Below are positions 1 through 35,493 of a DNA stretch of 35,493 nucleotides, piece after piece. The position numbers were made by a program, and so were the translations under genes. The notes beneath the pieces were generated by a model. It saw only the letters and a list, made by a program, of their open reading frames with translations, had not been told where the DNA came from and made no database searches. The first letter of the stretch is position 1. Each line of letters starts with the position of its first letter. Location of the stretch: the UHGV virus genome UHGV-0231292; one strand, given 5' to 3'. This DNA is from a virus.

Positions 1-22
1 AAAACCACCCGAAGGTGGTTTC
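1..22 (-). terminator. Hairpin (ACCACC-CGAA-GGTGGT) followed by T-run on minus strand; probable terminator of the host tRNA transcript
   Basis: Inverted repeat with flanking A/T runs read directly in sequence; lies just 3' of the tRNA-derived fragment on the same strand. Confidence 0.4.
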
Positions 23-64
23 ACGACACTGCTTATTGCTTTGATTTTATTCTTATCTTTCCCA

Positions 65-120
65 TGGTACCCGGAGCGGGACTTGAACCCGCACAGCGCG
101 AACGCCGAGGGATTTTAAAA
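65..120 (-). other. 3' fragment (anticodon loop to CCA end) of a tRNA-Leu(UAA)-like gene; probable prophage att core
   Basis: Minus strand reads TTTAAAATCCCTCGGCGTTCGCGCTGTGCGGGTTCAAGTCCCGCTCCGGGTACCA with T-stem GCGGG/CCCGC and T-loop TTCAAGT; the 5' half has no acceptor-stem complement, so it is not an intact tRNA. Identity to E. coli leuZ is from memory. Confidence 0.6.
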
Positions 121-32535: not shown

Positions 32536-33675
32536 GTGGGAAACAATAAAGTGAAATTAGGAAGAAATGATAAGTGCTGGTGTAATTCAGGACTTAAGTA
32601 TAAAAAGTGCCATCTTGGTCGAGATCGTGAAACTCCGGTATCCAAAGCCGAGGCACTGAAATTTTCAAAGTCTCTCTCGCAGAGAAAGGCATGTTATGCG
32701 CCAGCATCCATGCACGAAGATTGTGATAAACGCATCGTTCAGGCGCATACGATATCTAAGAGCAGTAGCCTTAAGGCGATCGCCGACTCCAGCAATCACG
32801 TCATGGGGGTGATAATGAACTTAGCAAGCCTGATGAGAAACAACGGAAAATGGCTTCCCGAGAAGATCGGTATCAATCAGGCATCCACTTTTACAGGATT
32901 TTGTGCAGTTCATGACAGAATCTTATTTTCATGCCTAGAGAACGAAAAATTTACAGGCACGGACGAGCAGTGCTTTGCCTTAATGTTTCGTTCATTGTCT
33001 AAAGAAATTTATGCCAAAGAAGGGGGAGTGCTATCTTCTGATTTTGCTAAAAATGCCGATAAAGGAAAGCTACAAGTTGAACAGTATTATATTCAGAAAT
33101 TAATCGACCAGCACCAAAGTGGCTTAAATGCAGCAATAATTGAATTAAATAATCTTAAAACTAGCCTCGACCGCATCCTACTTAGCAGGCAATTTTCAGA
33201 AATTGAAAGTGTTATCTTCACTTTTGCAGAGCCTTTACCAATTGTAGTTTCGTCAATTCTTTCACCGGAGAGGGATTTCGATGGGACCAAAATTCAGGAT
33301 TTGAGCGATCTTACAGTGTCGGCGGAACAAGTATGTTTCAATGCTTTTTCCTGCGGAGGTAAGGGATATGTAGTGTTCAGTTGGCTGAGAACTTCAACAA
33401 TTATCAGACGTTTTATACGGACACTAATTAAGATCCCAGCTAACAGGATGTTCAATACCCTTCTGTATTTTTTCTTCACAAAGGCCGAAAATACATATTC
33501 ATCCCCTGAGTGGTGGGACAGGCTCAGTGATAAACAGCGAGAGAATATCGGCAACATGATTATGTCAGGGGTTGAATTTTTTGGCAGACCTACATCACAG
33601 GTTGATCATTCCGTTGATTATAACGCCGCTGCACTTGAAGAGATAACATGCAGCAACAACGAAATTTGCAGCTGA
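32536..33675 (+). CDS. SEC-C metal-binding-motif protein of unknown function in an AT-rich island
   Basis: 379 aa; N-terminal CWCNSGLKYKKCH matches the SecA/YecA SEC-C zinc motif (C-x-C-x8-C-H); non-ATG start (GTG at 32536 or 32551); AT-rich versus flanking phage genes. Confidence 0.55.
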   Translation: MGNNKVKLGRNDKCWCNSGLKYKKCHLGRDRETPVSKAEALKFSKSLSQRKACYAPASMHEDCDKRIVQAHTISKSSSLKAIADSSNHVMGVIMNLASLMRNNGKWLPEKIGINQASTFTGFCAVHDRILFSCLENEKFTGTDEQCFALMFRSLSKEIYAKEGGVLSSDFAKNADKGKLQVEQYYIQKLIDQHQSGLNAAIIELNNLKTSLDRILLSRQFSEIESVIFTFAEPLPIVVSSILSPERDFDGTKIQDLSDLTVSAEQVCFNAFSCGGKGYVVFSWLRTSTIIRRFIRTLIKIPANRMFNTLLYFFFTKAENTYSSPEWWDRLSDKQRENIGNMIMSGVEFFGRPTSQVDHSVDYNAAALEEITCSNNEICS

Positions 33676-33964
33676 ATGTTTACATGCTGTTAGAAAAAGC
33701 GGGCTGAACAATCATTTCGGGATTGTAACAGATAAGATGGCACTGCCCGCTTGCTTCCCGATATGCACCTCAGCCAATAAACTTATGTAAGCAACCGATT
33801 TCCATTTATGCGGAGGTTATCAAAGTTGTTGGAGTTGCGAACTTCCGCTCTTCGCACAAAGCGTACCGCTAGGTTTGATTGTATTCTGGCTGCGCAAACT
33901 GTCAGTTGGAGTCTGAGCTATTACAACTTAGAATAGCGGCAGCACCACGTTAAGGGAGGTCGCT

Positions 33965-34225
33965 ATGTTCCGTTGTCCGCTTTGTGGCGCATCTGCCCGA
34001 ATCCGCACCAGTCGTCCGGAAAACGATTCAAACACTGTGCGGCAAAAGTATTACCAGTGTAACAACCTGGAATGCGGCGTATGCTTCTCAACACTGGAAG
34101 CTTTCCATAAATTCACATCAAAACACGCCTCCGGCGTTCACTCTTCGGAAGGTATCCCGTGGCATGAGCTGCCAGCTTCACACAGGGGAAACAATCAGAT
34201 GAGTTTGCCTTTACCTCAGAATTAA
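33965..34225 (+). CDS. ogr: Late gene transcription activator, zinc-finger (P2 Ogr / Delta-like)
   Basis: 86 aa; MFRCPLCGASARIRTSR...YYQCNNLECGVCF Cys4 finger (C-x2-C-x22-C-x4-C); RBS AAGGGAGG. Confidence 0.85.
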   Translation: MFRCPLCGASARIRTSRPENDSNTVRQKYYQCNNLECGVCFSTLEAFHKFTSKHASGVHSSEGIPWHELPASHRGNNQMSLPLPQN

Positions 34226-34415
34226 CAGGCAGAATTGCCGGAGTAACAAAAAAACGATAGATTACCCGCGGGTGCCTTTCGGCTGATGGTCGGAGGAATA
34301 CCCGAAGGCCGGATGTGGAAAGGCCCCGGAAAACATTTCTGTTTAACCGAGGCCCTAACATATCTACCTTAAGCAAGTGATAGGTTAGCGCCTCTCCAAC
34401 AAAGGAGCAAGCGCT

Positions 34416-34556
34416 ATGTCGCAAAAATCGCTTACAGCCATCACGTTCTGCGTGACGGTAATCCTCATCATCTGGATGCTACACGGTTCGCTGTGTGAAA
34501 TACGGATGAGCTTCTGGGGAGCGGAGTTTGCGGCGTTCTTACAGTGTAAGCAGTAA
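34416..34556 (+). CDS. hok: Hok/Gef-family type I toxin (46 aa)
   Basis: MSQKSLTAITFCVTVILIIWMLHGSLCEIRMSFWGAEFAAFLQCKQ: TM helix plus SLCEIR...AAF signature; RBS AAAGGAG; below ORF-track cutoff. Confidence 0.65.
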   Translation: MSQKSLTAITFCVTVILIIWMLHGSLCEIRMSFWGAEFAAFLQCKQ

Positions 34557-34644
34557 GGAAACCGCGACGGGGGAGCAATCCCCCGTCAATCGGTTGCTAA
34601 GGTTGGCTGAAGTGGCACCCTATCTCACAGACATGAACAACAAA

Positions 34645-34676
34645 CCCGCAGCGTAAGAACTGCGGGTTTTCTTTTT
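34645..34676 (+). terminator. Rho-independent terminator of the hok-like transcript
   Basis: CCCGCAG-CGTAAGAA-CTGCGGG followed by TTTTCTTTTT. Confidence 0.6.
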
Positions 34677-34744
34677 GGAACAATCACTAGCTAGTGTACC
34701 GTTAACGGCACATAATGCTCGCACAACAAACCTGTTAAAAGAGA

Positions 34745-35026
34745 TTACTCAGCATTCTCCTGCTTCCATTGCCGGATCATTTCATCGGTAACATCACCCT
34801 CATAACATACCACGTCATACCCTCCATTACGGCTATATGCACTGCGTCCACCACATCTACTACCATTCCTTGCATGATTATAAGGACACGCACAATTGCC
34901 TGGATAAGATTCAATGGATTCTTTAATTATTTCTTTTTTGATCTGAGCATCAGACTTTCCTGTTGCTGCATATCCACTAAAAGATACTAAACAAAGGCAG
35001 ATTGCCATTAATAAACCACATCGCAT
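34745..35026 (-). CDS. Small secreted Cys-rich protein of unknown function
   Basis: Start set to the internal Met giving signal peptide MRCGLLMAICLCLVSFSGYAA; mature part has 4 Cys (NCACPYNHARNGSRCGG...VVCYEG); AT-rich. Confidence 0.4.
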   Translation of the reverse strand: MRCGLLMAICLCLVSFSGYAATGKSDAQIKKEIIKESIESYPGNCACPYNHARNGSRCGGRSAYSRNGGYDVVCYEGDVTDEMIRQWKQENAE

Positions 35027-35307
35027 ACCGATACACTCTATTACTAACCAATCATAGCCCACATCATAAAATCGAGATGAGGAGTACAATACCTTTAACA
35101 AGAAGGTGTCATAACGATAATATGTCGTGCAATTCATCAAAAAAAAGATCTATATCAAAGAGATAGAACTCTTATCAGTGCTTCAGACATCGGCATTCGA
35201 GGCAGCAGAAAAACAGTAAATCTGACGAATTTGCCTTTTCCCAAGATGTTGTCAGATTAAAAAGATAGATTAGCGCAGGTACCTGTTGGTGGATTGCAGG
35301 AGGAAAA

Positions 35308-35412
35308 ATGAAGTCGAGTGAAAAAATCCCAGAAAAATTTTTGTTTAACAGAGGTCCTGGTTCACTATGCGAAATACGGAGGAGCTGCAGAAGAATTCTG
35401 CTTAGAGTTTAA
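35308..35412 (+). pseudogene. Degenerate hok-like paralogue lacking the transmembrane helix
   Basis: 34-codon ORF with RBS GCAGGAGG; ...RGPGSLCEIRRSC... and nucleotide similarity to the hok core at 34416-34556 (GGTTCnCTnTGnGAAATACGGAnGAGCT). Confidence 0.35.
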
Positions 35413-35493
35413 ACAGCACGTGCACTACCATTGTTTCTGCATATCGCCACACCATCGCCACTCTACCGCCATTGCACAAAATACAAATACGAA

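Follow-up and report, generated by a model that had tools for sequence, protein, structure and literature searches.

A predicted hok/sok-type locus without mok, and a hok pseudogene, among the cargo genes of a P88-like prophage at leuZ

The virus genome UHGV-0231292 (35,493 nucleotides (nt); this whole stretch, at its full length, is called the window below) ends on its right-hand side with a short region of apparent cargo genes (34226-35493), in which a gene for a small toxin of the Hok/Gef family follows ogr, the gene for a P2-type late-gene activator. Besides hok itself, this region contains a predicted promoter, a putative Sok-like antisense RNA gene on the opposite strand, several RNA fold-back elements and an intrinsic terminator. 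Further to the right there are a gene for a cysteine-rich protein in reverse orientation and the remains of a second hok copy (Table 1). A preliminary description of the window had placed a hok toxin locus immediately after ogr, and indeed ogr, the last core P2-type gene ahead of the cargo, ends at 34225, only 10 nt before the -35 box of the predicted hok promoter. Here we analyze the architecture of this locus, its origin and its possible function.

Table 1. Positions of the features discussed in the text (aa, amino acids; UTR, untranslated region; MFE, minimum free energy)
Feature	Position in the window	Strand	Remarks
attL repeat	1..119	none	63 bp downstream of leuZ including its terminator AAAACCACCCGAAGGTGGTTT, plus the 3' 55-56 nt of tRNA-Leu
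ogr, late-gene activator	33965..34225	+	Pfam Ogr_Delta, E 5.1e-14; RefSeq WP_000488107.1
Predicted hok promoter	34235..34263	+	-35 TTGCCG (34235-34240), 17-nt spacer, -10 TAGATT (34258-34263); start at ~34270
Predicted full-length hok mRNA, ~407 nt	34270..34676	+	MFE -175 kcal/mol, z = -7.7 versus shuffles
tac-like 5' element (GGGUGCC..UCG)	34270..34281	+	Partner of the fbi-like element in the full-length mRNA; folds into a local 5' hairpin once the 3' end is shortened
Predicted Sok-like antisense RNA, ~62 nt	34313..34374	-	Ends by homology, ±5 nt
mok-start-equivalent site	34362..34388	+	AUC at 34362-34364 in place of AUG; conserved TAG (34386-34388) closes the frame before the hok ribosome site
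Predicted sok promoter	34382..34410	-	-35 TTGCTC (34410-34405), 17-nt spacer, -10 TAACCT (34387-34382); 7 nt to start G 34374
Hairpin sequestering the hok Shine-Dalgarno sequence	34386..34416	+	AAGGAG at 34402-34407; reaches the A of the start codon; -14.2 kcal/mol
hok, 46-aa Hok/Gef toxin	34416..34556	+	Pfam PF01848; PHROG 251; RefSeq WP_000078920.1 'Hok/Gef family protein'
3'-UTR stem-loop	34561..34594	+	Core GACGGGGGA/TCCCCCGTC at 34566-34587; compensatory changes in 5 of 9 pairs
3' closing elements	34595..34620	+	Pairing with the Sok target (34368-34375) through 34595-34601; fbi-like pairing with the 5' end through 34608-34620
Intrinsic terminator of the hok transcript	34642..34676	+	Hairpin with T-run; four compensatory pairs among relatives
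Cys-rich protein, 93 aa, N-terminal hydrophobic leader	34745..35026	-	WP_001303543.1; moron, 40% GC
hok pseudogene	35259..35417	+	Retains the promoter -10 box, the 5' leader (35259-35358) and the 3' third of the coding region (35359-~35417)

The assignment of the reading frame 34416-34556 to the Hok/Gef family, made in the preliminary description, is borne out by profile searches. Pfam HOK_GEF matches residues 7-44 of the protein with 30.1 bits (gathering threshold 22; E 3.7e-7), and PHROG 251 ('MokW-like host killing') matches with 82.8 bits. The best NCBIfam match is the HokA equivalog NF007290, whose score of 35.8 bits stays under the cut-off of 89, so that the protein is not HokA itself; HokA of Escherichia coli K-12 is nevertheless the nearest named paralogue (43% identity), Hok of plasmid R1 being more distant. 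The peptide possesses a hydrophobic stretch at residues 6-22. In a register that we chose ourselves, its M1, C12, T14, L26-C27-E28 and E37 are plausible counterparts of M1, C16, T18, L30-C31-E32 and E41 in a published logo, i.e. of residues conserved in >80% of Hok peptides (Escalera-Maurer et al., a 2026 preprint, bioRxiv 10.1101/2025.08.07.668861). In the same survey, the Hok peptide of the window is entry 1628 of the high-abundance cluster 72. Two peptides of this cluster, 72_1621 (V15A compared with the window Hok) and 72_1589, were cloned there and are absent from the three constructs out of 45 that proved non-toxic (bioRxiv 10.1101/2025.08.07.668861). Furthermore, the same peptide (100% identity) is encoded by phage P88 (gp52, YP_009113095.1). 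Hok of the window is an already known element: P88 and hundreds of E. coli genomes have this gene annotated as Hok/Gef, its peptide has been surveyed and close relatives have proved toxic, so that the gene as such offers little discovery value. What the analysis settles is that the locus is phage cargo, where the prophage ends, and that the second reading frame belongs to a pseudogene.

For comparative purposes, we used 16 distinct loci (the relatives) that encode a 46-aa Hok of this cluster; their sources are E. coli, phages, Salmonella, Klebsiella and one plasmid. The 46-codon frame is intact in every one of them, in three genera and at synonymous divergence (dS) of up to 1.3, with a median ratio of nonsynonymous to synonymous divergence (dN/dS) of 0.21. 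Hok is under purifying selection.

The remaining parts of the locus were placed by alignment with K-12 hokB/sokB and hokC/sokC and with plasmid hok. The -10 box of the predicted hok promoter aligns with the -10 boxes of hokB (TAGGAT), hokC (TATAAT) and plasmid hok (TATGAT) and is kept as TAGATT or TAGAAT in 15 of the 16 relatives. On the opposite strand, the annotated K-12 genes sokB and sokC each align to exactly 34313-34374. The RNA predicted for this interval folds into a long hairpin that is preceded by a single-stranded 5' tail and followed by a short tail containing U, similarly to SokB and SokC (-22.9 kcal/mol, z -3.4), and one pair of the hairpin varies in a compensatory manner (GC in 10 relatives, AU in 6). 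The preliminary description had suggested a search for a sok-like promoter on the strand opposite to hok, and a candidate (TTGCTC-17-TAACCT, 34410-34382) is present there; its hexamers and the 17-nt spacing are retained in all relatives, and the sokB region shows, in our own reading, a matching layout (TTGCCG-17-TAAGAT). In addition, the Rfam family sok (RF01794) gives a full-length match on the hok-sense strand at 34270-34426 (E 1e-8, 46.7 bits), beginning where the hok transcript is predicted to start. The controls hokB, hokC and plasmid hok reach 110, 118 and 87 bits, respectively, likewise on this strand, and the cluster relatives 38-57 bits. Judged by its sequence, the hok leader carries a putative cis-encoded sok gene with its own promoter, as is the case in R1. 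The terminator noted downstream of hok in the preliminary description could be confirmed as well, as a hairpin followed by a T-run at 34642-34676.

The hok mRNA is predicted to fold back on itself. Unguided RNAalifold prediction with the 16 relatives yields a 5'-3' closure consisting of 34270-76/34614-20 (paired in 96% of the alignment cells) and 34279-81/34608-10, the latter with compensatory changes in all three pairs. The same prediction pairs the Sok target (34368-75) with the 3' UTR (34595-601), contains the ribosome-site hairpin, the 3'-UTR stem-loop and the terminator, and connects the start region with the 3' part of the coding sequence (34418-31/34521-34; 99.5% of the cells paired). 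The single-sequence MFE fold of 34270-34676 shows the same 5'-3' closure. The fold-back structures, for which a search had been proposed, are thus present with compensatory changes in the relatives, and the locus possesses the tac/fbi type of closure found in R1. Altogether, 18 pairs have changes on both sides, compared with 10.9±1.8 in shuffles and 1-3 with slid partners; note that the structure used in this test came from the same alignment and was thereby favoured. In the hairpin over the ribosome site, all 16 relatives have the helix 34386-91/34411-16 paired, the only changes being to or from G-U, and the AAGGAG in this hairpin, 8 nt from the ATG of hok, is a strong ribosome site. The GC hairpin GACGGGGGAGCAATCCCCCGTC that the preliminary description had pointed out lies at 34566-34587, in the core of the 3'-UTR stem-loop. 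By analogy, this stem-loop is likely the protective end of a 3'-processed mRNA, as the analogous stem in R1 protects truncated hok mRNA (PMC9841398). If the mRNA is shortened in silico to the 3'-UTR stem-loop, a local 5' hairpin is formed and the Sok target is freed, with 34371-34385 being single-stranded. Besides, the last ~33 nt of the hok coding sequence (34521-34553, codons 36-46) are nearly invariant in the 16 relatives, synonymous sites included. This suggests a constraint at the RNA level that hides the start region.

The alignment with known hok/sok loci, which the preliminary description had recommended, located sok and the fold-back elements but no mok. At the position equivalent to the mok start codon, the window has AUC. 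The TAG at 34386-88 that closes this frame is conserved in all relatives, and the two other frames close at 34370 and 34378. A mok leader frame as in R1 is lacking in the window and in all 16 relatives: in 11 of them, whatever type of start is allowed, no open reading frame (ORF) extends to the hok ribosome site, and the frames that do so in the other 5 are sporadic and mutually unrelated. In the controls hokB, hokC and plasmid hok, the mok ATG is found at -57/-58. A leader ORF starting with the ATG at 34313 (19-28 codons) was considered as a substitute for mok and rejected, as this ATG is limited to the subset of relatives from E. coli and Stx phages, the ends of the frame vary (-60 to -30, once +131), and single-sequence folds put the GAUGUGG segment in the outer stem of the Sok-target hairpin. 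In E. coli strain 4588 (L009 4623-4866; same leuZ site, 92% identity), the equivalent ATG opens a 78-codon frame across hok with a mok-like overlap; this frame is absent from all other relatives and is probably fortuitous.

In R1, mutations of the mok start codon abolish Hok toxicity (PMC9841398). Since mok is required there and no mok frame exists here, the regulation of the window locus cannot equal that of R1, and Sok would have to act directly on mRNA stability or on ribosome standby rather than via mok. A literature search for mok-less hok revealed nothing relevant, and an earlier description may exist; the mok-less architecture of the abundant cluster 72 may be the only new point of this locus. 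It makes the cluster a natural test case for whether the R1 paradigm, in which Sok blocks mok and mok drives hok, can be generalized.

Whether the hok region is phage cargo or host flank had been left undecided in the preliminary description, which had proposed an extension of the sequence to the right in search of a tRNA-Leu copy. In this extension, an exact 119-nt copy of window positions 1-119 is found directly after position 35493 (L001 13595-13713) and continues into an intact tRNA-Leu gene, leuZ, which begins 65 bp to the right of the window end and faces the window with its 3' end. The attR repeat starts at the base immediately past the window end. The identity of 119 bp between the att sites is unusually long, the terminator of the host leuZ gene being thus copied in the phage, and the boundaries of the window coincide exactly with the repeat. 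No third copy of the tRNA segment or att site was detected within the window, in line with the earlier failure to find a tRNA core in 34226-35493. At the left end, a tyrosine integrase is encoded at 226-1227 on the minus strand. The window therefore has what characterizes P2-family prophages integrated into tRNA genes, i.e. att repeats with the 3' end of a tRNA, an integrase gene at one end, and gpD, tail genes and ogr at the other end. It is a P88-like (P2-family, Xuanwuvirus-type) prophage in the 3' end of leuZ of E. coli and spans a single prophage from attL to just before attR, whose ends are now defined by the 119-bp repeats. Over its final 1.6 kb, the window matches E. coli chromosomes with 100% identity. 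The annotation of strain SCU-124 lists, in this order, tail genes, gpD, a SEC-C-motif protein, ogr, Hok/Gef, hypothetical protein, tRNA-Leu, tRNA-Cys, tRNA-Gly, pgsA, uvrC. A literature search on P2-like phages at leuZ gave nothing useful.

The ogr-hok module (33925-34676) can be found in other phages as well. It is 97.5% identical in phage P88, 95.8% in phage Chuche (from mud) and 92-96% in several further P2-family phages; the hok locus alone has 83% DNA identity in many Stx2a phages, and prophages of Salmonella and Klebsiella have Hok of the same cluster at their ends. Next to hok, P88 and Chuche carry one or two other cargo genes, after which come attP and int; therefore, the order ogr, hok, variable slot, attP is the normal one. 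Because it lies inside the 119-bp attL/attR repeats and because the ogr-hok module is present in P88 and Chuche, everything in 34226-35493 is phage cargo and not host flank. The alternative, an ordinary chromosomal hok of the host flank that is unrelated to the prophage, had been named in the preliminary description as what would overturn its proposal. In its favour, several hok loci exist in E. coli chromosomes, and the last core phage gene ends before the region begins; yet the locus is situated within the att repeats, occurs in the genomes of P88, Chuche and Stx2a phages, and shows only 43% identity to HokA, the nearest of the K-12 paralogues tried. Contradicted by the att repeats and the phage copies, this reading has next to no probability and was dropped.

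In the circular phage genome, the order is ogr, hok/sok, Cys-rich gene, hok relic, attP, int. The integrase has only 39% identity to P88 Int (L003 108-1103), whereas the ogr-hok module is 97.5% identical; hence, the phage is a mosaic with a swapped int-attP module, and the junction lies between the hok terminator and attP.

The second hok-related sequence of the window is an old pseudogene of the same Hok cluster. Its leader (35259-35358) aligns with 34251-34356 (72.6% over 106 nt, E 5e-9; alignment score 82 versus 23±3 for shuffles), and 35359-35386 aligns with 34485-34512 (85.7%; alignment score 45 versus 17±3), extendable to ~35417/34553. The 128 nt in between (34357-34484) are missing and with them the tail of the Sok target, the sok promoter, the ribosome site, the start codon and the membrane helix. 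Lineages differing by up to 8% were examined, and every one of them shares this deletion. The preliminary description had interpreted an ORF at 35308-35412 as a decayed duplicate that keeps the SLCEIR core and nucleotide similarity to hok and lacks the transmembrane helix. The similarity, the decay and the loss of the helix, which was part of the deleted segment, hold; a genuine ORF it is not. The 34-codon frame with SLCEIR loses its ATG (ATA in O157:H7), is frameshifted by a 1-nt insertion in a lineage with 92% identity and has its tail altered by a 7-bp insertion or deletion, so that it is a chance frame across the deletion and not a gene. A GGAGG precedes its ATG in the window, as would suit a functional 34-aa, truncated and soluble Hok derivative, and yet neither start codon, frame nor the SLCEIR sequence is kept in the other lineages, Pfam finds nothing in it and RefSeq does not annotate it. 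Such a function is extremely improbable.

A search for the intact parent of the relic in E. coli revealed only further-truncated copies beside leuZ. In a Salmonella P2-like prophage (L013), hok abuts the host junction directly. The relic may be what is left of the hok that originally lay next to att in the leuZ-type int-attP module; recombination with a P88-like ogr-hok module would then have displaced it.

Taken together, we regard the intact locus (~34235-34676) as a working type I toxin-antitoxin module of the Hok/Sok type that is carried as prophage cargo and controlled by fold-back without mok coupling, with a probability of about 85%. In the proposed mechanism, the ~407-nt hok mRNA would be transcribed from its own promoter and be locked at full length by pairing of its 5' end with the fbi-like element and of the Sok target with the 3' UTR, by the ribosome-site hairpin and by pairing of the start region with the 3' coding sequence. 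Slow trimming from the 3' end as far as the stable 3'-UTR stem-loop would release both the 5' end and the Sok target. The unstable Sok-like RNA of ~62 nt, made from a promoter overlapping the hok ribosome site, would then bind the freed target and cause decay of the mRNA or block access of ribosomes; repression may proceed through RNase III-type decay or through a block of the standby region. Once Sok is no longer replenished, the 46-aa Hok would insert in the inner membrane and kill or lyse the cell. The supply of Sok would stop upon loss or induction of the prophage, or when an infecting phage shuts off transcription. The module could serve in prophage retention, in lysis after induction or in exclusion of other phages, and the data do not discriminate between these roles. 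Exclusion of other phages has been reported for hok/sok of R1.

Several points weigh against this reading. The evidence for toxicity concerns a one-residue variant that was overexpressed, and it is taken from a preprint. A generic sigma-70 promoter scan found neither the hok nor the sok promoter, in the case of sok because its hexamers match the consensus in 3 of 6 positions each; both promoters were predicted from positional homology and conservation and have weak hexamers. The RF01794 match stays below the gathering threshold of 59 bits, and the covariation test was a favoured one. Both RNAs, i.e. their expression and ends as well as the 3' processing of the mRNA, are predictions at the sequence level. 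Moreover, a strictly R1-like mechanism would predict a silent gene, as mok is absent, and in the fold of the 3'-shortened mRNA the ribosome site is still in its hairpin, which leaves the switch-on of translation unexplained.

In a rival reading, hok is an intact gene that is no longer translated for want of mok and is merely carried along by the phage as a remnant of evolution. The AUC at the mok start, the closure of all frames before the hok ribosome site, the R1 mok mutants (PMC9841398) and the persistent ribosome-site hairpin would all fit a silent hok, and the discussion of the preprint cites reports that the chromosomal hok copies of K-12 are mostly inactive (bioRxiv 10.1101/2025.08.07.668861). 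However, the ORF is preserved under selection in all relatives, and conservation with compensatory changes extends to the promoter, the Sok region and the long-range helices, which would be unexpected for a dead locus. The truly dead copy, only 0.7 kb away, looks very different, and the AAGGAG of the intact copy is strong. A silent hok is therefore quite improbable, and a functional hok/sok module is preferred.

The closest known systems differ from the window locus in various respects. P88 encodes the same peptide, but the window phage has another integrase/att module and extra cargo, namely the Cys-rich gene and the relic. According to the preprint, hok is enriched in prophages, and 10% of the hok genes are located in islets of 2-6 copies within 2 kb; the survey deals with the coding sequence only and explicitly sets Mok, Sok and mRNA structure aside (bioRxiv 10.1101/2025.08.07.668861). 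The hokW-sokW locus of the Stx2 prophage Sp5 (Takada et al. 2021, PMC8621323) is likewise a phage-borne type I Hok/Sok system with a sokW antisense gene and its own promoter in the hok leader. HokW is toxic, is neutralised by sokW, and helps lysis and phage release after induction (PMC8621323). Unlike the window Hok, HokW has 51 aa, starts with MKQQKAM, belongs to another Hok cluster and is encoded by a lambdoid phage; the cluster-72 hok of Stx2a phages is a locus separate from hokW. With hok/sok/mok (parB) of plasmid R1, the window shares at homologous positions a small membrane toxin, an antisense Sok predicted to be unstable, a very stable folded mRNA of ~400 nt (in the window likewise predicted), the tac/fbi closure, the protective 3' stem-loop and a sok promoter overlapping the hok ribosome site. 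The differences are that translation of mok is mandatory in R1 whereas the window has no mok frame, that R1 is a plasmid and the window a prophage, and that the plasmid locus scores much higher with RF01794 (87 versus 46.7 bits). As for K-12, the Sok-like RNA and its promoter were placed by positional homology with sokB and sokC; K-12 has mokB and mokC as annotated genes and mokA as a pseudogene, while the window is without a mok frame. In the tisB/istR-1 system, the ribosome site is structured and the antisense RNA binds at a good distance upstream of it, and processing of the mRNA exposes a single-stranded ribosome-loading region. A functional analogy to this system is possible, with no sequence relationship; for the window, the idea of a standby region comes from the modelled fold of the shortened mRNA.

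We tentatively suggest, as a possibility with somewhat more against it than for it, that the cluster-72 loci represent a mok-independent hok/sok variant, in which Sok acts via decay or by occluding a single-stranded standby region 30-60 nt upstream of the hairpin-locked ribosome site, and that attP-adjacent loci of this kind are left behind at integration hot spots as relics (35259-35417) or as tandem arrays (Salmonella L018-L023). Such arrays of 2-3 intact copies of the same 46-aa Hok cluster are found in Salmonella islands (L018 3001-3631, L019 3001-3635, L022 3001-4487, L023 3001-4143). Their copies have a leader each, are spaced 0.5-0.7 kb apart and lie beside host genes, which fits the published 'hok islets' and parallels the pair of intact copy and relic in the window. 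In a Salmonella lambdoid prophage (L016 2852-3000), the cluster-72 hok has lost its promoter and tac element, the 5' end being replaced by unrelated sequence; this differently truncated locus still possesses its Sok region, ORF and 3' elements.

Between the hok terminator and the relic lies the gene for the Cys-rich protein, which the preliminary description had correctly recognized beyond hok as having an N-terminal hydrophobic leader (93 aa, 34745-35026, minus strand). The protein belongs to phrog_27544 (E 7e-58), a family of unknown function. Its 235 homologues (named sources are Enterobacteriaceae, Pseudomonas and Oxalobacter) have C45, C47, C58 and C74 as invariant residues and share the motif GxCxCPY...G.CG.RSA..R.GG...C. 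No family was found in Pfam, NCBIfam or PADLOC, the only Pfam match being a sub-threshold one to Sclerostin, and a Foldseek search with the AlphaFold2 (AF2) model (predicted local distance difference test score, pLDDT, 79) against the Protein Data Bank (PDB) and BFVD gave nothing better than E about 2. The N-terminal hydrophobic helix together with the cysteines suggests that the protein is exported.

The 0.8-kb segment with the Cys-rich gene and the relic is present in 654 of 5,426 complete E. coli genomes, beside leuZ in every case inspected, and the complete arrangement from ogr to the relic in 309 genomes. In E. coli O157:H7 F6321 (L010 3485-5031), the P2-like prophage at leuZ has lost the live hok/sok together with ogr and the 3' part of gpD through an IS30-family insertion, and retains the Cys-rich gene and the relic; in other strains (L011, L012), IS1 shortens the segment further. 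One could assume that this segment (34677-35493) is the scar of an older element at leuZ, outside the present phage genome. It has no match in 50,697 phage records, persists beside leuZ where insertion sequence (IS) elements have eroded the prophage, has a GC content of 39-40% compared with 52% for the window, and includes the mosaic junction deduced from the divergent integrase. Nevertheless, it lies inside both 119-bp repeats with no third att or tRNA copy separating it from ogr-hok, and with a single integration event, DNA to the left of attR is phage DNA. Furthermore, the number of genomes with the segment at at least 80% coverage (586) is close to that of genomes with the integrase module (525), and a 35.2-kb metagenome contig contains the Cys-rich gene, ogr and gpD in the same order. 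We consider the scar rather unlikely and count the segment among the phage cargo.

Another variable position is found on the other side of ogr. The slot between gpD and ogr is occupied in the window by a gene (32536-33675, plus strand; 41% GC) for a 379-aa protein, designated 'YecA family protein' in RefSeq. Its sole recognizable feature is an N-terminal SEC-C motif, and PADLOC likewise matched the SEC-C motif alone. In the related 35.2-kb metagenome contig (L025 2095-4010), the same slot contains a Thoeris pair, ThsA (SIR2/STALD) and ThsB (TIR). The slot looks like a variable hotspot for defence genes or morons, and the SEC-C protein appears to be a candidate for such a gene.

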